Below are positions 11,636 to 26,148 of a stretch of 64,000 nucleotides of DNA, in pieces. The first letter of the stretch is position 1, and each line of letters begins with the position of its first letter. The DNA is from Escherichia phage vB_EcoS_AKFV33: the sequence record NC_017969.1; one strand, given 5' to 3'. Below the pieces are notes generated by a model. It did no database searches. It was not told the origin of the DNA and saw only the letters and a list, made by a program, of their open reading frames with translations. The position numbers were made by a program, and so were the translations under genes.

Positions 11636-12112
11636 TTACATCTCGGCAAGTTCTTGCTCGGTAATAACTGTGTTACACAATGCATCTACAGCTTCATTAC
11701 CACTAATACCAGAATGACCTTTAACCTTAATAAAGGTAGGGTTAGTATTATGAAAGTTGATATACTGCTGTGTTAATTTAAATGCTTCCTGCCAAAGTTC
11801 TAGATTAAGAGGGACTTCACCATCTGCTTTCTTCCAGCCTTTCCTTTGCCAAGAAAACATCCAACTTTCCATACCATTTTTGCAATAAGCAGAGTCAGTA
11901 TAGATAGCAATTGGTCTATTATCTTTTTTAACAGACCAACGTAGAGCTTCTACAATAGCTGTGAGTTCCATCTCATTATTTGTAGTTTTAGGATTATAAC
12001 CAGATTTAGAACCCAAACGATCGTCGTTATCATCATAGACAATAAAACCCCAAGCACCTGGACCTGGGTTAGACTTACAAGCACCATCTGTGTAAATGTG
12101 GAAAACCGACAT
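11636..12112 (-). CDS. rnhA: ribonuclease H
   Basis: YTDGAC...NPGPGAWG...NNEMELTAI...YTDS...VKGHSGISGNEAVDALC pattern. Confidence 0.8.
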   Translation of the reverse strand: MSVFHIYTDGACKSNPGPGAWGFIVYDDNDDRLGSKSGYNPKTTNNEMELTAIVEALRWSVKKDNRPIAIYTDSAYCKNGMESWMFSWQRKGWKKADGEVPLNLELWQEAFKLTQQYINFHNTNPTFIKVKGHSGISGNEAVDALCNTVITEQELAEM

Positions 12113-12375
12113 TATTTTTCACCTTCTGTTACAACTCTAGTTTTTGGCGGAATTGGAGGCATTGGTGGAACTCTTGGGTACTCTCTTTGTGGACCATTTG
12201 ATGCTAAAGACGGCTCAGGAGGCTTAGGTTTTATAGCCTCTAATTCCCTATCCAAGAATTCCTCTATTGCTCTATCTACAAAGTAGTCATAAGGTAAATG
12301 ATAGTATTCTGATAGAGTAAGAAGTTTGTGTTCTTGCCTTTCTGTTAAATAAATTTTCTTTCTAAAGAGTCCCAT
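12112..12375 (-). CDS. hypothetical protein (87 aa), Pro-rich C-terminus
   Basis: ORF track. Confidence 0.45.
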   Translation of the reverse strand: MGLFRKKIYLTERQEHKLLTLSEYYHLPYDYFVDRAIEEFLDRELEAIKPKPPEPSLASNGPQREYPRVPPMPPIPPKTRVVTEGEK

Positions 12376-12401
12376 ATGTATACCTCCAATTTATAAAATA
12401 T

Positions 12402-12430
12402 ATTATATTTAAATTTCACTAAATAAGCAA
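12402..12430 (-). promoter_or_regulatory. early promoter (TTGCTT-17-TATAAT)
   Basis: motif upstream of 87-aa ORF. Confidence 0.5.
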
Positions 12431-12469
12431 ATGAAATTTAAATATAATAGCCCCGAAGGGCTATTTGAG

Positions 12470-12823
12470 TTAAATTATAATCAAGATTATGAGAGCATAG
12501 GTTAAGTAATGGAGTAACTGATCAAATCCTAAAGCTATCCAAAACTTGGAATCACTTATATCGTATTTACAGCGTTGTGCTTTCCAGTAATCTATGATAA
12601 AGTGTAGGATTAATTCCATTATAGCTAAAGTTATAGCCATTCCTAGTGATGTGAACATAGTAAGAATTATAAAGGTTAGTCCAGCATGTACTAGAGAATG
12701 GGTTAGTAATGGAAGTTTCCATCCTATTTTGTGAGTCTTCCTTAACATGTATGGAGTTTGGAGGGGATAATCAGCCATAAAATGTTTCAGGAAGAATATA
12801 ACAAATAATAATATTGTAAACAT
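12470..12823 (-). CDS. small integral membrane protein
   Basis: three to four hydrophobic helices. Confidence 0.5.
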   Translation of the reverse strand: MFTILLFVIFFLKHFMADYPLQTPYMLRKTHKIGWKLPLLTHSLVHAGLTFIILTMFTSLGMAITLAIMELILHFIIDYWKAQRCKYDISDSKFWIALGFDQLLHYLTYALIILIII

Positions 12824-12826
12824 ATA

Positions 12827-13681
12827 TTATACCGTAAAGGGGTATGCAATAGCAGGATGGTGTTTGTAACCACGAACAGTAAAATCATCCTTACTTACCC
12901 AGGTCAATACATCCTCCAGAGTTCGGATATTTGGATTGATTTCTAGAGTAGGATGTGCAAAAGGTTCACGATCGAATTGCTTATGCTCCATCAAAACATT
13001 ATACTGATCCTCATAGATATGAAGATTGATAATCTTCTGGCGTGCAATTCCTGGTTTAAGGCCTGTAATCTGTGCCATTAATGCTAGAAGCGTATAGCAC
13101 TGAACCATGTTAAATACTTGGCCTAACAGGAAGTCATTAGATCTCTGAAAAGAGTTCAGGTATAATGTATCTCCCAAAATAGAGAACTGATGAGTGTGCA
13201 TACATGGACGTAAGCAACCTTTCGAGAACTCTCCAGGATTCCAGAAGGTTAGAATTTCCCCACGATCATCAATGCCCTTCTTCAGGTTATGATAAATCTT
13301 GGCTAGTTGGTCAAACATAAGACCATCGGAATTAGTCCACTGACGTCCTTGAACACCATAGACTCGTCCCATATCATCCTCACCTTTGCGATATGGATTG
13401 TCTAGCCAAGCTAAGTTTTCATTTGCATTAGCATTCCATGTGTTAACACCAATAGCGCGGAATTGTGCTGCTGAATCATACCCACGCAGATACCCAATCA
13501 TTTCCATTATTGCTTGTTTTGCAAACGCCTTACGAGTAGTAATAAGGGGGAATTCCCCTGCACCTACGTTAAAAGTAAAGTCTGCGTCAATAATGGTGAG
13601 GCAACGAACCCCCGTTCTAGGATTCGTTACCCACTGACCCTCTGATAGAATATGTTTTCCAACTTCGATATACTGATCCAT
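12827..13681 (-). CDS. thyA: thymidylate synthase
   Basis: ThyA-like length and motifs ([21 protein letters not shown]). Confidence 0.85.
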
Positions 13682-14214
13682 TAATAGGTAACCAATTCCT
13701 GTACAAATCGCAGGCTGTTATCACTGTTTGCGCCAGTTGCGTAAACTAAACGAGTAGATTCATAGTTGTAATCTAGAATCGTATTATCCAGATGTACATC
13801 TGCCTCTAGTTTTTGATCACTAAAGATTGTGGATACGAAAGCACTTTCAATATGACCATGAATATACATTTCGTACAGTAATGTTGCGCCACCTAAAACC
13901 ACTGTCTGTTGATCTTTTAAGAATGTAGGCAATGTATCCCCAATCTTAGAAATTGGAATGTAAATATCATGCGTAATATCGTCTGGCAGTGGACGATCAG
14001 CACGAATAAATAGATCAGAAGCCCCAATCATACGTTCCCTAACGGCGTATGGAAGAGCTAAATAAGTACCAGCACCAATGATGATGTTATCTGGATTCAA
14101 CACGTCCAGTTGAGAATAGAAAGCATCTAGTTCTTCTTTGAAGGAACCCCATGGAAGTTTACCGTGGAGGCCGAACTCCCCATTCGGCCCAACTGCATAC
14201 ATTGCTGTAATCAT
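13681..14214 (-). CDS. folA: dihydrofolate reductase
   Basis: N-terminal [15 protein letters not shown]...LPW motif; 1-nt overlap with thyA start. Confidence 0.8.
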
Positions 14215-15356
14215 AAGAAATCTCCAAATTCATTACCCAGATCTTTCAGAGTATCAGTAGAGGTTTCGGTGACTTGACCTACACGATATGCTGCACCAAT
14301 CTGGATTTCTTGTGGAGCAGGCTGTAAAGAAGTGGTATCCAACCAGTTCATGATCCACGGAATAGGGTTTTTGGTGATTACTGGTAAATGACTAGGCCAT
14401 TCTACACCGATGTGCATAAATGCATTACGTCCCACAAAATACAGATATTCTTCTAGAAGTTCTGCATTTAAACCAATCAGACTACGACCTTTGAAAATGA
14501 AATGACCCCATTCAATTTCAGTTTTCAGAGTTTTCAGAAGCTGTGCGGGTGCTTTAGCCAATGCTTCATCCACCAGATCTTTGTCAAACTGCTGGAACAT
14601 AATCTGGATGATTGCTTTAGACATCTGAGTGTGTAGAGCTTCATCTTTAGCGATTAGTTGTAGGTTTTTAGCAATACCTTGCAGAATATCGTTCTCTGCT
14701 AATGCAAAGGTACATGCAAAGGATGCGTAAAACTGCATTGCTTCCAGACCGTAGATTGCAAAGTAAGCGTCTAATAGCTTAGCCTGAGTTTCACGTTTAA
14801 CTTCAGGGAACTCAGTTTCTGGATACGTATTGTCGCCACGATGATCGCGTACTGCGATGAAATACTGACCTAACTGATATAGCTCATCAAATAGCTCAAC
14901 AGAATCAGCGATGCGTGCGAATGCTTCCTGGTTTTTGGTTACAGAATCAATAAATTCTGCTGGATCAGTCAGCACATTACGAATAATATTGCTATAAGCA
15001 CGACTATGCAGATCTTCAAAATAGCTCCACTGCTTGAGCATACCTTCCAATTCTGGGCGACTTACAAGTGGCATAATAGCTGCTTCAGGGGCACGACTGA
15101 TAAAGGAGTCAGTTTGAGTTTGCCATGCTAAGTTCAGGAGTGTAATTTCCTGAATTTCACGCGGGAGATTACCCCACTGCTTTTTATCAGCTTCAAGACT
15201 AATTTCAGTTTCAGTCCAGAACTGGGAACGCTGCAACAGAGCTAATCGCTCTAGTTCGGGGTGTGCCACACGCACATAATCTGCGATACCCAAAGAATCA
15301 CCTAGGAAAAGATCAGCGTTAGTATGGTCCCATTCTAAGTTAAGTAAAGTAGTCAT
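14211..15356 (-). CDS. nrdB: ribonucleotide reductase class Ia beta subunit
   Basis: NrdB-like length and di-iron ligand pattern. Confidence 0.85.
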   Translation of the reverse strand: MTTLLNLEWDHTNADLFLGDSLGIADYVRVAHPELERLALLQRSQFWTETEISLEADKKQWGNLPREIQEITLLNLAWQTQTDSFISRAPEAAIMPLVSRPELEGMLKQWSYFEDLHSRAYSNIIRNVLTDPAEFIDSVTKNQEAFARIADSVELFDELYQLGQYFIAVRDHRGDNTYPETEFPEVKRETQAKLLDAYFAIYGLEAMQFYASFACTFALAENDILQGIAKNLQLIAKDEALHTQMSKAIIQIMFQQFDKDLVDEALAKAPAQLLKTLKTEIEWGHFIFKGRSLIGLNAELLEEYLYFVGRNAFMHIGVEWPSHLPVITKNPIPWIMNWLDTTSLQPAPQEIQIGAAYRVGQVTETSTDTLKDLGNEFGDFL

Positions 15357-15850
15357 TTAGCTTCTCCGTTGTTTGCAAAGTCCCCATGAAGTTCTAGTAG
15401 TTTGATGTCTCTCCATTCTATAGCTTCTTCTAGGGTTTTAAAAGTTTTTGTGTAAGATTTGCCGTCTTTGCCTATCCTAACCTGAAATGAAGTGCCTTTT
15501 ACACGAATATTTTTCATTCCAAGCTGGTTATCCGCTCTTGCACACGAGTTCATAGAATTTTGAGAACTCGTGGCTTCACGGAGATTATCCCAGGCACAGT
15601 TGGACGGATTAGTATCTTTATGGTCGATTTTTCCTTCTGGTATTTCTCCAGTCATATACAAGAAGGCTAGGCGATGAGCTAAATATTGAACTCCTTCAAC
15701 TTTTATACGAAGATACCCTAATTTATCGTAGGTTCCTGCTTTAGCGTTCCATAAATGCTTTGCTAAAGTTTTTCTTGGGAGCCAGGTAAATTCGCCAGTT
15801 TCAGGGTCATAGGAGATTAGCTCTTTTAATCTACTCTGTGTTAATTTCAT
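15353..15850 (-). CDS. HNH homing endonuclease with AP2-type DNA-binding domain
   Basis: IDHKDTNPSNCAWDNLREATSSQN (HNH) plus KNIRVKGTSFQVRIGKDGKSYTKTF (AP2-like); inserted between nrdA and nrdB with own promoter. Confidence 0.75.
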   Translation of the reverse strand: MKLTQSRLKELISYDPETGEFTWLPRKTLAKHLWNAKAGTYDKLGYLRIKVEGVQYLAHRLAFLYMTGEIPEGKIDHKDTNPSNCAWDNLREATSSQNSMNSCARADNQLGMKNIRVKGTSFQVRIGKDGKSYTKTFKTLEEAIEWRDIKLLELHGDFANNGEAK

Positions 15851-15856
15851 ATAGAT

Positions 15857-15885
15857 ATTATAGCAAATCTGGTAGCGATTAGCAA
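15857..15885 (-). promoter_or_regulatory. promoter (TTGCTA-17-TATAAT) dedicated to the HNH endonuclease gene
   Basis: motif between nrdA terminator and HNH start. Confidence 0.5.
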
Positions 15886-15895
15886 GTAAAATTTC

Positions 15896-15930
15896 AAAGA
15901 AAAAGGAGACCCGAAGATCTCCTTGTTTTT
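15896..15930 (-). terminator. hairpin terminator after nrdA (possibly bidirectional)
   Basis: AAGGAGA-loop-TCTCCTT stem flanked by A-run and T-run. Confidence 0.55.
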
Positions 15931-15931
15931 A

Positions 15932-18262
15932 TTAAATAGTACAACCACCGGATGCACAACCGGCTGCTTCTTCTCCAGCACCTCCACCATTTGCGGTATT
16001 GAAGTTAGCGTAATACCAAGTTTTCCACCCATACTTAACAGCAGTCATGAAATCACGAACTACTACTGGGCCAGGAATGATTTCATTCTCAAACTTGGTG
16101 TAGTCATAGTACATATTCGTACTGATAGACTGACTGAAGAATTTCTGCATAGTTGCTACCCATTTGATCCACTCGATACGATCTACATCATAAGCCAGTT
16201 TATAGCTCATTAACGTTTCCCAATCGGTTGCACCTGGAGCAATTGCAATTACTTTATTTACTGCACTACCTTTAATAGATACAATCTTACGAGGCGGTTC
16301 GATAGAGTTAGTAACTCCTAGCAGAACAGAAGAACTTTCTCCTGGCATCTGAGCAGTCAGAACAGAGTTACGCATACCATATTTCAGAATATCTGCACGC
16401 AGAGACTCCCAATCCATTTCTAGACCTACGGATACCAGTTCATCAACAGTTTTCTTGTACGTGTCGATTACCAGAATTCCTTTAGATGGTTTAGTGCGAT
16501 CAAACCACTCGCATGCACCCTGTTCTTTAGCTAGGCGTACAGAGGCTTTATGCAGGAAGTAAGACAGTTTTTCAGCCTCACGGTGAATCCAGTTACGGGC
16601 TTCAATACCTTCATAAGCCAGACCTTCTGCTGCCATTGCACCTGCTGCGTTCATTAGTCCAATACCAACATTACGACGTTTCTTAGCCGTATATTCCATA
16701 GTTGGGAACGGATAATCCTGAATTTCAATAATTGTATCAACGAATTTCAGAAGGATGTAGCAAGTTTTTTCCCACTCAGCCAGAGATTCCATGCGCCCAA
16801 GTACAACACCACCTAAGTTACACAGAGATACTTCACCAATATCCTCCGGCTTCATTTGATCAAGCTGCTCTTTTGTCTTATACAGCTCTGTGATATGATG
16901 GAACGGGCGTGTAGGCTGAGTAATTTCAACACAAAGGTTTGTCATACGGATCGGATCAAGGAAGTTACCGTGACGATTAGATTCCCCGATGTGATGAGCA
17001 TACATACGTCCTGTTTCCATTCGGATACGTAGCCAAGTATCTAGGATTTCTTTTGCAGAGACTTTAGGAGCTGCAGGAACTGTTTTTCCTTCGTGGTCGA
17101 TCTTTGTAAGAGATGCCACACGTTTCTCCGCTGCCACGTAGATTTCTTCAAATTTAGCCTCGTCATCACTATAAAACGCTTCATGAACTTCTGGAGCATA
17201 GAAGTATGACATTAGCGTAATATCTTCGTTTTTAAGATAACGTTTTAACAAAAGATTGTTAAAGCTCAGAGAATAATCCATCTTATCGATTTTATTCTCA
17301 TCTGTAGCACGTTGTTGCTTAACCTGCATCAATTGAATGATTTCAGGGTCGAAGTATGGATAAGACACTGTAGCAGAACCACCACGAGTTTGCTGAGTAT
17401 TGGCCTTTACTGAGCGGTCAATGTGTCGATAATATGGTAGTTTTCCGGAATGCGGGAATGCCCCATTTCGCACCGGATCAGCAATTGATCGGCTTTCAAG
17501 ATGATACCCGATTCCCGCTCTGGCTGCGACCATTTTGAAGACGATGTGCTCGGCGGTGTCGATTGAATCCAACGTGTCAGTGGAATCCACGAGGCAGCAA
17601 CTAGCAAATCCACGGTCACTAGAGCGCAGACCAACCAGTGGCGGCGTAGGAACGTTGATTTTGTGGAGTGACATTGCGTTGTAGAGGTCGATTGCATCTA
17701 GAATTGTCCAGTTAGGTTGAGATAACATCGCCATTGCCATACCCATGTAGGCAAACTGCGGAGTTTCATAAATTTCACCAGTGGCTATGTTACGACGGGA
17801 ATACTTATCAAAGAACTGCTTCAGTCCACCACTAGTAAAAAGACGGTCACGATCATGGTCGATAACCTGATTCAGAGCTTCAAATTGCTCATCGGTAATC
17901 CATGCACTCATGTCTTCCCATGCACCTACGCTAACCATGTGGTCATGGAAGAAGCGCAGAGAAGGCGGTTCGAAGGAATCATAAAGGCGTTTACGCATTT
18001 GCGCAAGACGTAATTCCTTTGCTGGCACATCATATGCTGGATTATCTTTAATAAGACTTTCAGCAGCTTTAATTAATGCATCCATCAGAGTGTCGGAATC
18101 TACAACCCCTTTAGGCAGAGTTTTTTGAGCAGCCATAGTAATGGCTGACCAACTTACATCAACTGTTTTGCAACCATACTCTGCCCAACCATTTAGTTTT
18201 TCAGGAGCAAAGTCTTCTACAGTACCGTCACGTTTAATTACTTTTTCAATGCGATGGCTCAT
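15932..18262 (-). CDS. nrdA: ribonucleotide reductase class Ia alpha subunit
   Basis: ATP-cone start MSHRIEKVIKRDGTVEDF, C-terminal Cys pair CASGGC; start moved to ATG with AAGGAAAG RBS. Confidence 0.9.
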   Translation of the reverse strand: MSHRIEKVIKRDGTVEDFAPEKLNGWAEYGCKTVDVSWSAITMAAQKTLPKGVVDSDTLMDALIKAAESLIKDNPAYDVPAKELRLAQMRKRLYDSFEPPSLRFFHDHMVSVGAWEDMSAWITDEQFEALNQVIDHDRDRLFTSGGLKQFFDKYSRRNIATGEIYETPQFAYMGMAMAMLSQPNWTILDAIDLYNAMSLHKINVPTPPLVGLRSSDRGFASCCLVDSTDTLDSIDTAEHIVFKMVAARAGIGYHLESRSIADPVRNGAFPHSGKLPYYRHIDRSVKANTQQTRGGSATVSYPYFDPEIIQLMQVKQQRATDENKIDKMDYSLSFNNLLLKRYLKNEDITLMSYFYAPEVHEAFYSDDEAKFEEIYVAAEKRVASLTKIDHEGKTVPAAPKVSAKEILDTWLRIRMETGRMYAHHIGESNRHGNFLDPIRMTNLCVEITQPTRPFHHITELYKTKEQLDQMKPEDIGEVSLCNLGGVVLGRMESLAEWEKTCYILLKFVDTIIEIQDYPFPTMEYTAKKRRNVGIGLMNAAGAMAAEGLAYEGIEARNWIHREAEKLSYFLHKASVRLAKEQGACEWFDRTKPSKGILVIDTYKKTVDELVSVGLEMDWESLRADILKYGMRNSVLTAQMPGESSSVLLGVTNSIEPPRKIVSIKGSAVNKVIAIAPGATDWETLMSYKLAYDVDRIEWIKWVATMQKFFSQSISTNMYYDYTKFENEIIPGPVVVRDFMTAVKYGWKTWYYANFNTANGGGAGEEAAGCASGGCTI

Positions 18263-18300
18263 TTGGCTTTCCTTTTTATAGTTATCAGGATTTAAGGAAT

Positions 18301-18329
18301 ATTCTACTTTATTATCGGTCATTAGGCAA
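18301..18329 (-). promoter_or_regulatory. promoter (TTGCCT-17-TAGAAT) upstream of nrdA
   Basis: motif follows hairpin terminator. Confidence 0.45.
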
Positions 18330-18342
18330 ATAAAATTTTCTG

Positions 18343-18376
18343 ATAGAAAAGGCCCGAGTATTTTCATACCCAGGCC
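18343..18376 (-). terminator. rho-independent terminator ending the phoH unit
   Basis: GGCCTGGGTAT-GAAA-ATACTCGGGCC hairpin then TTTTCT on minus strand. Confidence 0.5.
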
Positions 18377-18404
18377 CTGTATATTACCAGTCTAGCTTTT
18401 TAGC

Positions 18405-18626
18405 TTATTCAATTACTTTAGCTCTAGCTACTTCTTTTAATAGAATATCTATGGAGGTGCTCAGCTCGTTATAATTGAATGGTTTATTTGGATTTGAGGT
18501 TACAATTTTCCACGCTAGGGTTGTCTTAGGACTTTCTTCCCCTTCCTTACGTGTAATCATATTAGCAGCACTCAGTGAAGTACGATGTATTTTAGTTTTA
18601 CGGCTCAGATGAACGACGTTTCCCAT
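18405..18626 (-). CDS. hypothetical protein (~73 aa)
   Basis: MGNVVHL...; ATG 2 nt after phoH stop. Confidence 0.4.
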   Translation of the reverse strand: MGNVVHLSRKTKIHRTSLSAANMITRKEGEESPKTTLAWKIVTSNPNKPFNYNELSTSIDILLKEVARAKVIE

Positions 18627-18627
18627 A

Positions 18628-19389
18628 TTACACCTTCCCCATGTCTTTAAAGATGTCATAGAATGCTTTAGACTCAACAGAACGAACGTTATCAATCAAT
18701 TCGATCATTGAGAATGGGGCATTTTCGTATTTCTCATAGACTTCCATAAGGAGTGCTAGACCTGAGTCACCTTTAATGTCTTTCTGAGCTATATCTCCGC
18801 AGATAATTAAACGGCAGTCTTGTCCTACACGAGTTAGAAGACAAATCATTGCCTCAACGGAAATATTCTGAGCTTCATCGACAATTACATAGGAGTTGTT
18901 GAAAGTTCTGCCACGAGCATGTTCGACAGCCAAAAATTTAATTTTCTGACGTTCGACATATCCCTTATAGGCATGATCGCCGATGGCCCATTTCATACCA
19001 TCAGCTATTGGCTCCAACCAAGGCTCTAGCTTTTCTGCTAGATCACCAGGAAGCATACCAAGAGACTTACCTAGAGGTTCATTAGGACGTACGAGGATAA
19101 CTTGCTCAATATCTGAGTGAATGTCTACGAGTTCCTGAGCTGCAAGAACGGACGGAATAAAGGTTTTACCAGTACCTGGCTCACCGATACCCACAGTCAC
19201 TGTGTTGTTCTTGATCATATTGATATATGATTTTTGCTCGCGGTTTTTACCTACTAGGGATTTAGCAACTGGGTTAGCGTAATCATTAGAAAAATCAGCC
19301 TGAATTACGTTATTCTCATACTTGTTGCCACGCTTTCTTGAACCATTGCGGTTCTCTCTTTTTTGACGTGCTTTTCCCATAAATAACAC
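18628..19389 (-). CDS. phoH: PhoH-like ATPase
   Basis: Walker A GIGEPGTGKTF and PhoH-like core. Confidence 0.85.
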   Translation of the reverse strand: MLFMGKARQKRENRNGSRKRGNKYENNVIQADFSNDYANPVAKSLVGKNREQKSYINMIKNNTVTVGIGEPGTGKTFIPSVLAAQELVDIHSDIEQVILVRPNEPLGKSLGMLPGDLAEKLEPWLEPIADGMKWAIGDHAYKGYVERQKIKFLAVEHARGRTFNNSYVIVDEAQNISVEAMICLLTRVGQDCRLIICGDIAQKDIKGDSGLALLMEVYEKYENAPFSMIELIDNVRSVESKAFYDIFKDMGKV

Positions 19390-19453
19390 TCCTATAGTGT
19401 ACTTCGCTAACAGAGGATCAACAAAAAGATCTTGTTTATCAACTTACAAATAT

Positions 19454-19482
19454 ATTATACCAATATATACAGTAAAAAGCAA
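19454..19482 (-). promoter_or_regulatory. early promoter (TTGCTT-17-TATAAT) for the phoH-nrd leftward unit
   Basis: motif in divergent intergenic region. Confidence 0.5.
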
Positions 19483-19682
19483 CTACAATTTTAAATAAGC
19501 CTATGATATTGCATTTAAATAAAAAATTTGCTTGCTTTTAACGTGAGATGTGTGATACTAGATAATCATTTTATATCGCGTACACGAGTGCGTGATTATA
19601 CAATCTTTAATAGAAATTGGCAAATAAAATTTTTTCAAAAATTGATTAAAGTCAAGTTATTTAAGAATGCTAAAAAATTTTA

Positions 19683-19711
19683 TTGACATAGTGGTATTTT
19701 TATATTATACT
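19683..19711 (+). promoter_or_regulatory. strong sigma70 promoter (TTGACA-17-TATACT)
   Basis: consensus -35, 17-bp spacer, near-consensus -10, AGGAG RBS before ATG at 19735. Confidence 0.6.
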
Positions 19712-19734
19712 ATGTACTAAATAGGAGAAATAAA

Positions 19735-20403
19735 ATGCCAAAGAAATTGAGTACGGAAGAAGTCAATAATAGACTTTTAGATAGAGGAATTGTCTTAGTT
19801 GGGGAGTATATAAATGCTAATACTAAGGCTAGTTTTAGATGTTCAGTGGGGCATGTATGGGAAACAAAACCATCAGTGTTACTTAACATGGGATTTGGAT
19901 GTCCATATTGCAGTGGGAAAGCTAAACTAACTCCTGAAGTAATAAACCAGGAATTAAGTAATAAAGGAATACAAATAGTAGGCAAATATGTAAATAATAG
20001 AACTCCGACCCTTTTTAGGTGTGAAAATGGCCATGAGTGGAATACTACTATTAATGCAGTGAAAAATTTAGACAGTAATTGCCCGATATGTAAAAAAGAA
20101 GGCAGGTCTAAAACAAAACTATATGTTATGTATAGTGAATCTTTAGGTACTAAGATTGGTATCTCTAATAAACCGGGAACTAGATTAGGAAAAATTAGCA
20201 GAAATGCTAATATACCAGATCTTAAATTATTTAAAGTATTTGATATCTTAGATTATACTAAGTGCCGTAAAATTGAGAAAGCAGCACATGAGCATTTTAA
20301 AGAATGGAACTGCTATTATAAGGATTTTGATGGTGCTACAGAGTTTTTTGATATTGAACCAGATACAGCAGTAAAATTTATTGAGGAAAATATTAATGAC
20401 TGA
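19735..20403 (+). CDS. GIY-YIG-like (T5orf172-type) protein with duplicated zinc-ribbon modules
   Basis: two repeats of F(R)C..GH.W...CP.C; C-terminal KLYVMYSE...GTKIGISN...R; strong promoter and RBS upstream. Confidence 0.55.
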   Translation: MPKKLSTEEVNNRLLDRGIVLVGEYINANTKASFRCSVGHVWETKPSVLLNMGFGCPYCSGKAKLTPEVINQELSNKGIQIVGKYVNNRTPTLFRCENGHEWNTTINAVKNLDSNCPICKKEGRSKTKLYVMYSESLGTKIGISNKPGTRLGKISRNANIPDLKLFKVFDILDYTKCRKIEKAAHEHFKEWNCYYKDFDGATEFFDIEPDTAVKFIEENIND

Positions 20404-25695: not shown

Positions 25696-26148
25696 ATGTC
25701 ATTCACACAGCAAGAACTTTTAGATAACTTCCGATATGAAGATGGTAAGTTATTTAGAACTACAGGAAGAAATGCAGGGAAAGAATGTTGTGTTTCTACG
25801 GGTAACGGATATTATCGTATATCTCTAGGGAATAGGACTATGCTTCGGCATAGAGCAATATTTTTAATGCATCATGGATACTTACCTGATTTAGTAGATC
25901 ATGTGAATACTATAAAAGGTGATGATCGTATTGAAAATCTTAGAGAGCAGACAGTGTCCGGTAATCTAAGAAATATCAAATATAAGAAAGGAATGCATGT
26001 TTACCCTTCTGGTAGTAAGAACTGGCAAGTAGTATTTACTATTAACCGTAAACGTATAGTTAAAGGAACATATGACAACTATGAGGTTGCATGTTCTATG
26101 GCCAAGATGTTTAGAGGTCAATTATACGGTAGGGAATCAATCCAGTAA
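25696..26148 (+). CDS. HNH homing endonuclease with AP2-type domain (second copy)
   Basis: HRAIFLMHHGYLPDLVDHVNTIKGDDRIENLREQT plus AP2-like C-terminus; start moved to ATG after GGAGGTGAGG RBS. Confidence 0.7.
   Translation: MSFTQQELLDNFRYEDGKLFRTTGRNAGKECCVSTGNGYYRISLGNRTMLRHRAIFLMHHGYLPDLVDHVNTIKGDDRIENLREQTVSGNLRNIKYKKGMHVYPSGSKNWQVVFTINRKRIVKGTYDNYEVACSMAKMFRGQLYGRESIQ

Follow-up and report, generated by a model that had tools for sequence, protein, structure and literature searches.

An HNH endonuclease gene separating nrdA from nrdB has already been described in T5-like phages, for example ORF96 of phage AKFV33 (PMC3326045). In phage T4, the gap between these two genes is occupied by the gene for MobE, a free-standing HNH homing endonuclease that nicks the nrdB gene of T2 at nt 122-126, the point of recombination lying in the first 189 nt (PMC2790892). 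Homing endonucleases of the HNH-AP2 type have been reported from phages, cyanobacteria, and protists (Magnani et al. 2004, as cited in PMC10448857), and HNH-AP2 or IPA-HNH genes adjoin essential phage genes, including those for ribonucleotide reductases (PMC10448857).

The window analyzed here, a stretch of 64,000 nt from Escherichia phage vB_EcoS_AKFV33 (NC_017969.1), comes from a T5-like phage that is about 97.5% identical to Spc35. The comparisons set out below support the view that its ORF 15353-15850 is a putative free-standing HNH-AP2 homing endonuclease gene that has invaded the nrdA-nrdB gap (Table 1). The presence of such a gene at this site is a textbook case that is already annotated and covered in the literature on T5-like phages: copies with 99.6% identity are annotated as HNH homing endonuclease, and the element is annotated in Spc35, Th1, SE11 and other phages. 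The upstream gene, nrdA, ends with a TAA codon at 15934-15932, while its 5' end is ambiguous, the product being annotated as either 811 or 776 aa among relatives.

Table 1. Features of the nrdA-nrdB region (window positions; aa, residues of the endonuclease)
Feature	Position	Strand	Basis or remark
nrdA, class Ia ribonucleotide reductase large subunit	15932..18367	-	Pfam Ribonuc_red_lgC, E 1.5e-119, and annotations in relatives
Intrinsic terminator hairpin after nrdA, 9-bp stem, UUCG loop	15903..15924	-	Folding; present in insert-free allele
Resident nrdB promoter	15857..15885	-	-35 TTGCTA 15885-15880; extended -10 TG 15865-15864; -10 TATAAT 15862-15857
Predicted transcription start, A of endonuclease ATG	15850	-	7th nt after -10 hexamer; promoter geometry
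Putative HNH-AP2 homing endonuclease gene, lineage 'type A'	15353..15850	-	165 aa + stop
HNH_3 catalytic domain, aa 56-100	15551..15685	-	
Key residues	D76-H77 15625-15620; N89 15586-15584; N98 15559-15557; N101 15550-15548	-	
C-terminal AP2-type DNA-binding domain, aa ~111-158	15377..15520	-	Three beta-strands, then helix
Replacement Shine-Dalgarno for nrdB, GGAG	15364..15367	-	Inside endonuclease codons G162-E163
ATGA overlap, endonuclease stop/nrdB start	15353..15356	-	Sequence
nrdB, class Ia ribonucleotide reductase small subunit	14211..15356	-	Pfam Ribonuc_red_sm, E 9.6e-36
nrdB nt 1-186, haplotype block linked to the endonuclease gene	15171..15356	-	Identity contrasts

The HNH-AP2 identity of the encoded protein, proposed in an earlier note on this DNA, was borne out. 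The protein matches the full Pfam HNH_3 profile (PF13392) with 60.5 bits (E 1.2e-16, aa 56-100; the curated cut-off is 24.8 bits) and phrog_99, 'HNH endonuclease', with an E value of 1.2e-60. Among 50 homologues, no variation occurs at D76, H77, N98, and N101, and N89 is at least 90% conserved. The D-H...N motif aligns with DHKDGN...N of I-HmuI, and the protein has the features of the beta-beta-alpha-metal fold, in an I-HmuI-like form. The C-terminal AP2-type domain was assigned by an indirect route, as it is too diverged for direct detection with Pfam: the AP2 profile gave no match at E <= 10, either to the whole endonuclease or to its C-terminal 65 aa. Conservation and confident folding extend to the N-terminal 25 residues, the dN/dS ratio is 0.04-0.13 (0.04 in comparison to STWB21, at a dS of 0.44), and none of the six copies examined has a disrupted ORF, not even that of Sugarland with 73.5% nucleotide identity; from the dN/dS values and the intact ORFs, we infer that the gene is expressed and functional. 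A search of the window for paralogues gave one candidate, a weak HNH_3-like segment at ~25807-25974.

The type-A allele is rare among relatives and was found at 90% nucleotide identity or more in 27 of 442 related records (about 6%), and in only 4 of the 82 Sugarlandvirus records. The comparison with insert-free relatives that the earlier note had called for revealed that empty alleles are the majority: in an evenly spaced sample of 57 sites, 33 (about 58%) were empty, 20 carried other HNH inserts of ~500 bp, and 4 carried the type-A allele. Five divergent endonuclease lineages alternate at this gap, which is empty in phage fp01. An exact-match scan of IMG/VR recovered the type-A junction in 0 contigs and the native-leader junction in 19, and contributes little over the GenBank survey. 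Two findings had been named as arguments against an invasion, namely conservation of the ORF in all relatives and the lack of HNH catalytic residues; as insert-free alleles are common and the catalytic residues are present, neither applies.

A hairpin terminator between nrdA and the endonuclease gene had been postulated and is indeed present: AAGGAGATC-UUCG-GGUCUCCUU is followed by UUUUUCUUUG, with the U-tract at 15902-15893, and has a folding energy of -12.5 kcal/mol (z = -3.4), with equally good folds in 2 of 200 shuffles. The sigma-70 promoter that follows (TTGCTA, a 17-nt spacer, TGcTATAAT; 10/12 plus the extended -10 TG) is the top match in 14000-19500, a region that is not enriched in promoter-like sites overall (10 sites versus 13.3 expected). 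However, both elements also occur in alleles that lack the insert. The hairpin is identical in the empty fp01 allele and in T5, SA001, falkor, and SE18, and the entire segment from the nrdA stop through TATAATAT, including terminator and promoter, is 100% identical in fp01, where the promoter drives nrdB via a 29-nt leader. The empty allele of the Klebsiella phage IME260 retains its promoter, and in alleles of the EPS7/S113 type the promoter and the native leader are located downstream of the endonuclease gene, adjoining nrdB. Because terminator and promoter are shared with empty alleles and lie 3' of the endonuclease gene in EPS7 and S113, this punctuation is ancestral; as judged from the alleles compared, it belongs to the phage and predates the insert, and the endonuclease gene captured the nrdB promoter. 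Thus, a promoter does exist upstream of the endonuclease gene, at 15885-15857, as the earlier note had claimed, but it is invariant in empty alleles and not 'dedicated', and the proposal that the insert uncoupled nrdA from nrdB does not hold, since the same terminator and promoter are already found in insert-free alleles.

The insertion point is the 5' untranslated region of nrdB, immediately 3' of the -10 box of the resident promoter. The insert proper (~15357-15854), which begins just after TATAATAT, has replaced the native 29-nt leader of nrdB together with its Shine-Dalgarno motif, and the nrdB-frd-thy transcript now has the endonuclease gene in first place. In turn, this gene supplies nrdB with a new GGAG, at a distance of 7 nt from the start codon, and with the predicted 4-nt overlap, an ATGA in which the endonuclease stop codon TGA (15355-15353) shares bases with the nrdB ATG (15356-15354). 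An equivalent GGAG is present in the T5, phiLLS, SE18, and Sugarland alleles, and the Sugarland record annotates a ribosome-binding site at this position. Folding did not reveal any RNA structure, beyond that of shuffled sequences, that would sequester the nrdB start or the 5' end of the endonuclease mRNA (z +0.9 and +0.3).

The endonuclease gene and the first ~186 nt of nrdB appear to travel between genomes as one block, which fits co-conversion. In comparison to the empty fp01 allele, nrdB nt 1 to ~186-191 are 81.7% identical versus ~98% in the remaining nrdA and nrdB (p 1e-22), with substitutions in the tract that are almost all synonymous. In comparison to falkor, nrdB nt 1-186 are 99.0% identical versus 89% in the flanks, and the block of endonuclease gene plus tract 98.6% versus 89.0% (Fisher p 4e-22). 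The end of the tract is nearly constant in two genome backgrounds and lies ~10 nt earlier (nt ~175) in Klebsiella phages, a second genus. The target of the endonuclease, or polymorphisms that confer immunity, probably lie in this tract, a placement inferred only from polymorphism patterns, and ordinary recombination breakpoints could leave such tracts, too. Nevertheless, the majority of empty alleles, an element more conserved than its flanks, and a co-conversion tract together uphold the invasion of the gap that had been proposed.

The explanation of the whole locus that we consider highly probable is that a homing endonuclease gene inserted into the nrdB 5' untranslated region, captured the promoter, and spread by homing. 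During a mixed infection, the AP2 domain would bind an nrdB allele that lacks the insert, at a site in roughly its first 190 nt, the endonuclease would nick or cut it in that region (a nickase activity, as in I-HmuI and T4 MobE, may be involved), and recombinational repair from the carrier genome would copy the gene plus nrdB nt 1 to ~186, while the synonymous changes in the tract would confer immunity on carriers; with less certainty, the endonuclease would be translated from a leaderless mRNA at a probably low level. It has also been suggested that the endonuclease gene arrived as an autonomous cassette, bringing along promoter and terminator, and so split a formerly co-transcribed nrdA-nrdB operon. 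This would agree with the real promoter and terminator directly 5' of the ORF and with the T5 record, which annotates a predicted promoter at the same position, just upstream of hegH, but it is extremely improbable and already refuted by the empty alleles fp01 and IME260, in which the two elements are identical and directly precede nrdB; the arrangement in EPS7 and S113 and the position of the insert boundary contradict it as well. Domestication of the protein appears improbable, whether it would regulate the nrd operon as a DNA-binding protein of the AP2 type or would attack competing phages or the DNA of the host as a non-homing nuclease. Purifying selection is strong, and such nuclease genes act as markers of exchange boundaries and are open to co-option (PMC10448857), yet most close relatives lack the gene, the gap is occupied alternately by five divergent lineages, the protein has kept its catalytic residues, and a linked nrdB tract with synonymous changes only is the signature expected of homing with target immunity. 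Even less credible is a decaying, untranslated remnant that was silenced by the loss of leader and Shine-Dalgarno motif and persists only because its deletion would remove the nrdB ribosome-binding site. The lack of a Shine-Dalgarno motif at the endonuclease ATG and the reliance of nrdB on the GGAG in the 3' end of the ORF would be in line with decay, but a dN/dS of 0.04 at considerable divergence from STWB21, an ORF that is intact even in the distant Sugarland copy, and a conserved and confidently folded N-terminus are not.

Within the favored history of promoter capture and homing, the one detail that looks new is the geometry at the start of the endonuclease mRNA, which recurs in Klebsiella phage Sugarland. 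The junction is TATAAT-ATCTAT-ATG in the window and TATAAT-ATTCAC-ATG in Sugarland; TATAAT, 6 nt, and ATG follow one another in the window, Spc35, falkor, STWB21, and Sugarland, while the intervening 6 nt are not the same in the T5-like group as in Sugarland. No Shine-Dalgarno motif precedes the ATG, a pyrimidine occupies position -1, and the RNA is free of structure at its 5' end. Because the ATG coincides with the +1 predicted from promoter geometry and lacks a Shine-Dalgarno motif, the mRNA is probably leaderless, and expression of the endonuclease is therefore probably low. It is possible, although we would put it at somewhat less than an even chance, that the type-A lineage has evolved a 'promoter-capture, leaderless' mode of expression, in which the AUG coincides precisely with the +1 of the resident nrdB promoter, a strong one. 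From a single primary transcript, the endonuclease would be translated weakly from the 5'-AUG and nrdB normally, via the Shine-Dalgarno motif in the last endonuclease codons. Sister lineages B-D at the same gap retain a ~24-nt leader with GGAG, and the type-A junction could have arisen from a type-D-like leader by loss of about 16-18 nt, whereby ...CTATAT-[TAAGGAGATATACTGT]-G AAA becomes ATG AAA. The geometry has been kept under purifying selection in two phage genera, and the fact that type A lost the leader yet stayed under purifying selection points to another functional mode of initiation. If true, this would be a compact arrangement by which a selfish nuclease gene keeps its own dose low and leaves the essential host gene expressed. 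A search of the literature on T5 transcription start maps or leaderless homing endonuclease genes retrieved nothing relevant.

Rather doubtful, but deserving serious attention, is the contrary reading that the endonuclease is translated mainly from nrdA read-through transcripts or from a start upstream of +1, independently of a Shine-Dalgarno motif on AU-rich sequence, and that the leaderless geometry is an accident of integration. Enterobacteria translate leaderless mRNAs inefficiently, and the true source of translated mRNA could therefore be nrdA read-through; the T4 mobE gene is promoterless and co-transcribed with nrdA. Furthermore, UAUAAUAUCUAU, which precedes the ATG, is AU-rich and unstructured, and the junction lies at TATAATAT microhomology in both genera, so that the Sugarland spacing could be a by-product of integration there and not a selected feature. 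However, the hairpin with its U-tract resembles an efficient terminator, an A at the seventh nucleotide past a near-consensus extended -10 with a pyrimidine before it is a canonical +1, and lineages B-D have kept their leader at the very same site.

The finding is ordinary overall, and its main value is a clean-up: the corrected ownership of promoter and terminator is relevant for the annotation and engineering of T5-like phages, in which the promoter of Table 1 should be treated as the nrdB promoter. As the GGAG of nrdB is located inside the endonuclease ORF, a precise deletion of this ORF would remove the only ribosome-binding site of nrdB. In addition, the comparative data offer a ready experimental system, with five HNH-AP2 lineages in competition, many empty sites, and a linked tract of ~186 nt that has sharp bounds. 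It could serve to locate the target of an AP2-guided HNH nuclease and to test the convergence of T5-like and T4-like phages on the same 5' target region of nrdB.

T4 MobE shares the niche of the window gene and has its target in the 5' part of nrdB, where the linked tract described here ends at about nt 186; its nick position aligns with codons 40-41 of the window NrdB, in the stretch with the densest substitutions. MobE was rejected as a homologue (BLASTP E = 40 over 3 residues), belongs to PF01844 and not to HNH_3, and has no AP2 domain. Furthermore, mobE lacks a promoter and has an internal terminator, whereas the window gene directly follows a near-consensus promoter and no mobE-like internal terminator was found on the minus strand inside 15353-15850. 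I-HmuI of Bacillus phage SPO1 (PDB 1u3e) is an HNH nicking endonuclease; it is intron-encoded, has a different C-terminal DNA-binding module without AP2, and is only 22-24% identical to the window protein. The architecture of an N-terminal HNH and a C-terminal AP2 domain is shared with the HNH-AP2 group and the IPA-HNH genes of ICP1, although the HNH_3 domain is canonical in the window protein and divergent in the IPA-HNH group. The T5 counterpart is hegH (putative H-N-H endonuclease P-TflVIII), whose name still includes 'putative'; the designation P-TflVIII is also carried by the 99.6%-identical copy of Spc35. T5 hegH occupies the same locus, in the nrdA-nrdB gap and 3' of the same promoter, and encodes a protein of the same family and architecture (HNH_3 plus AP2-like), but it has a different 5' junction, with a ~24-nt leader, GGAG, and a TTG start, in contrast to the window allele, in which this leader is absent. 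As its identity to the window protein is only 42% over 161 aa, T5 hegH represents a separate lineage and is treated as a sister of the type-A gene and not as its orthologue.

Insert-free alleles are the majority at the nrdA-nrdB site of T5-like phages (Demerecviridae), to which the window belongs: in an evenly spaced sample of 60 of the 442 records matching 14900-16400, 33 sites were empty (span ~1032 nt), four carried the type-A endonuclease allele found in the window (1501 nt), 20 carried other inserts of ~500-520 bp and three were uninformative. DNA at least 90% identical to the endonuclease gene was present in 27 records. The region 14000-18500 is matched by 527 phage records and is 97.5-97.6% identical to that of Citrobacter phage CitS1 and the Salmonella phages SE11 and Spc35. 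Klebsiella phage Sugarland has a member of the type-A lineage at the nrdA-nrdB site (78% amino-acid identity); among the 82 Sugarlandvirus records only four carry it.

The insert is linked to a short tract of nrdB. Between the window and the Epseptimavirus falkor, the block comprising the intergenic region, the endonuclease gene and nrdB up to nt 191 is 98.6% identical, whereas the remainder of nrdA and nrdB is only 89.0% identical (Fisher p 4e-22). The opposite is seen with fp01, a close relative with an empty site: nt 1-191 of nrdB are only 81.7% identical, the rest ~98% (p 1e-22). The ~35-39 substitutions in the tract change only two amino acids, and the tract ends at nt 186-200 in Tequintavirus and Epseptimavirus backgrounds alike, and at about nt 175 when Sugarland is compared with the empty allele of the Klebsiella phage IME260.

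Profile searches assign the encoded protein to Pfam HNH_3 (E 1.2e-16) and to phrog_99, "HNH endonuclease" (E 1.2e-60). When it is aligned with 49 full-length homologues, D76, H77, N98 and N101 do not vary and N89 hardly does; these catalytic residues correspond to the DH...N...N motif of I-HmuI, a nicking endonuclease whose structure was the sole solved one retrieved by sequence search (E 2e-4). The C-terminus itself gave no Pfam AP2 match; PF00847 (AP2) is matched by 32 of the 50 aligned proteins, and the HNH-AP2 label of the earlier note is therefore correct. Proteins built in this way form an established family of homing endonucleases (Magnani et al. 2004, as cited in PMC10448857). The ORF is intact in all six copies examined and under strong purifying selection (dN/dS 0.13 versus falkor, 0.04 versus STWB21 at dS 0.44). 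Taken together, presence and absence, block-versus-flank identity, the tract and selection form the pattern classically seen in populations with a free-standing homing endonuclease gene, and they are strong comparative evidence for that reading, which the earlier note had proposed; the observations run counter to an ORF present in all relatives and devoid of HNH catalytic residues. They also suggest that the target lies in the conserved 5' part of the nrdB coding sequence.

Features of the nrdA-nrdB region and of other parts of the window (window coordinates; gene order on the minus strand phoH, nrdA, endonuclease gene, nrdB, frd, thy)
Feature	Position	Strand	Remarks
nrdA	15932-18367	-	
Possible nrdA starts	18262-18367	-	18367, 811 aa (so annotated in fp01, T5); ~105 nt downstream, 776 aa (so annotated in Spc35, SA001, phiLLS)
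Hairpin	15924-15903	-	9 bp, UUCG loop, then UUUUUCUUUG; -12.5 kcal/mol, z = -3.4
Sigma-70 promoter match	15885-15857	-	TTGCTA-17 nt-TATAAT, extended -10 TG; top score within 14000-19500
nrdA-nrdB intergenic region	15855-15931		~77-81 nt across genomes
Insert	about 15357-15854		
Endonuclease ORF	15353-15850	-	165 aa
GGAG	15367-15364	-	within endonuclease codons G162-E163; 7 nt from nrdB ATG
ATGA overlap	15356-15353	-	endonuclease TGA, nrdB ATG
nrdB	14211-15356	-	
frd patch	13650-14100	-	dihydrofolate reductase gene
DUF3307 membrane-protein ORF	12470-12823		gap in STWB21
222-aa ORF	19735-20403	+	DUF4379/CapR treble-clef zinc-finger and T5orf172 domains
HNH_3-like segment	~25807-25974	+	tblastn match to the endonuclease: 57 aa aligned, 38.6% identity, E 1.5e-5

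All sequence features listed in the earlier note were found in the window. The promoter scan of 14000-19500, taken whole, gave no enrichment over shuffles. It should be stressed, however, that the promoter and terminator, which had been regarded as the endonuclease's own, are not. The window is 100% identical to the empty fp01 allele from the nrdA stop through TATAATAT, a stretch spanning hairpin, U-tract, -35, spacer and -10. Downstream of the promoter, fp01 has a 29-nt leader, TCCTGAAATAGTGAGAAAGAGGAAAATCA, and then the nrdB ATG. Sugarlandvirus gives the same picture: TGTTATAATATTC is retained in the empty allele of IME260, with a 31-nt leader containing GAGAGGAAA after it. The fifth endonuclease lineage, that of EPS7 and S113, lies upstream of the promoter, which remains intact with its native leader beside nrdB. 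The terminator-promoter punctuation is therefore, judged by sequence comparison, ancestral, and the insertion did not uncouple nrdA from nrdB, as had been claimed. What the insert replaced is the nrdB leader: nrdB is now served by a GGAG within the endonuclease gene, equivalents of which are present in all other occupied alleles, and its start also relies on the overlap with the endonuclease stop.

At least five HNH-AP2 lineages alternate in the gap, with pairwise identities of 31-47% outside the A/C pair. Type A (window, Spc35, falkor, Sugarland) follows the promoter without a leader, types B (T5 hegH "P-TflVIII", SA001), C (phiLLS, 66% identical to A) and D (SE18, HZ_ZJUN2) follow it with a ~24-nt leader containing GGAG, and type E (EPS7, S113) precedes it. 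The intergenic region shows 0-3 differences across Tequintavirus and Epseptimavirus genomes (loci L001-L006, L008, L010, L011), while the flanking coding DNA diverges by 10-14% among the same genomes; all lineages downstream of the promoter may use it as their upstream anchor for recombination. In the relatives with type B-D leaders (L002, L003, L008, L010, L011), the Shine-Dalgarno motif AAGGAGAT repeats the sequence that forms the 5' arm of the nrdA terminator (AAGGAGATC) farther upstream; in read-through transcripts, pairing with the terminator's 3' arm (GGTCTCCTT) could, in principle, mask it.

In type A, no Shine-Dalgarno motif was found upstream of the endonuclease ATG. Six nucleotides separate the -10 hexamer from this ATG (TATAAT-ATCTAT-ATG), so that its A (15850) is the seventh and falls on the canonical +1; the base before it is a pyrimidine. 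Sugarland has equal spacing with other intervening bases (TATAAT-ATTCAC-ATG), and its annotation marks a ribosome binding site for nrdB and none for the HNH gene. The predicted RNA has no paired bases in its first 12 nt, and a deletion of ~16-18 nt in a type-D-like leader would give the exact type-A ATG AAA junction. From the +1 geometry, the Sugarland spacing, the unpaired 5' end and the deletion route we propose that the captured nrdB promoter would yield a leaderless endonuclease mRNA. The main alternative is Shine-Dalgarno-independent translation from nrdA read-through transcripts, for which the promoterless T4 mobE is a precedent; the literature yielded no transcription start site data for T5-like phages. 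The leaderless, promoter-capturing arrangement is regarded as probable.

Further features were noted elsewhere in the window. The 222-aa ORF lies on the opposite strand and represents a second gene of homing-endonuclease type; the falkor and STWB21 alignments have large gaps over 19650-20400, so this ORF, downstream of phoH, is probably a further sporadic insertion. The HNH_3-like segment presumably represents another HNH homing endonuclease gene. In part of frd, identity to falkor and STWB21 falls to ~59-61%, and in the 13950 bin it is only 81-82% even for the very close fp01 and Spc35; by these alignments this is a local mosaic patch within a conserved gene. The region 12000-12830 is also variable, with 12000-12400 heavily gapped versus falkor.

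Differences among T5-like genomes are due mostly to homing endonuclease genes (PMC10644984). Public records already contain annotated copies of the element described here, and published work has reported an HNH endonuclease in the nrdA-nrdB gap of T5 and AKFV33 and compared it with T4 mobE (PMC3326045). The new details are modest, namely the probable leaderless promoter capture and the sharply bounded nrdB tract. T4 MobE, a free-standing HNH homing endonuclease encoded in the same gap, introduces its nick into T2 nrdB at nt 122-126, on the non-coding strand, and recombination is resolved inside the first 189 nt of nrdB (PMC2790892). In the window NrdB the nicked position corresponds to codons 40-41, in the conserved LALLQRSQFW region, and lies within the densest portion of the substitution tract. 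Homology with MobE was ruled out (BLASTP E = 40); MobE belongs to PF01844 and is without an AP2 domain, whereas the window endonuclease is HNH_3. The likeness of the two enzymes comes from convergence on one niche rather than from a common family.
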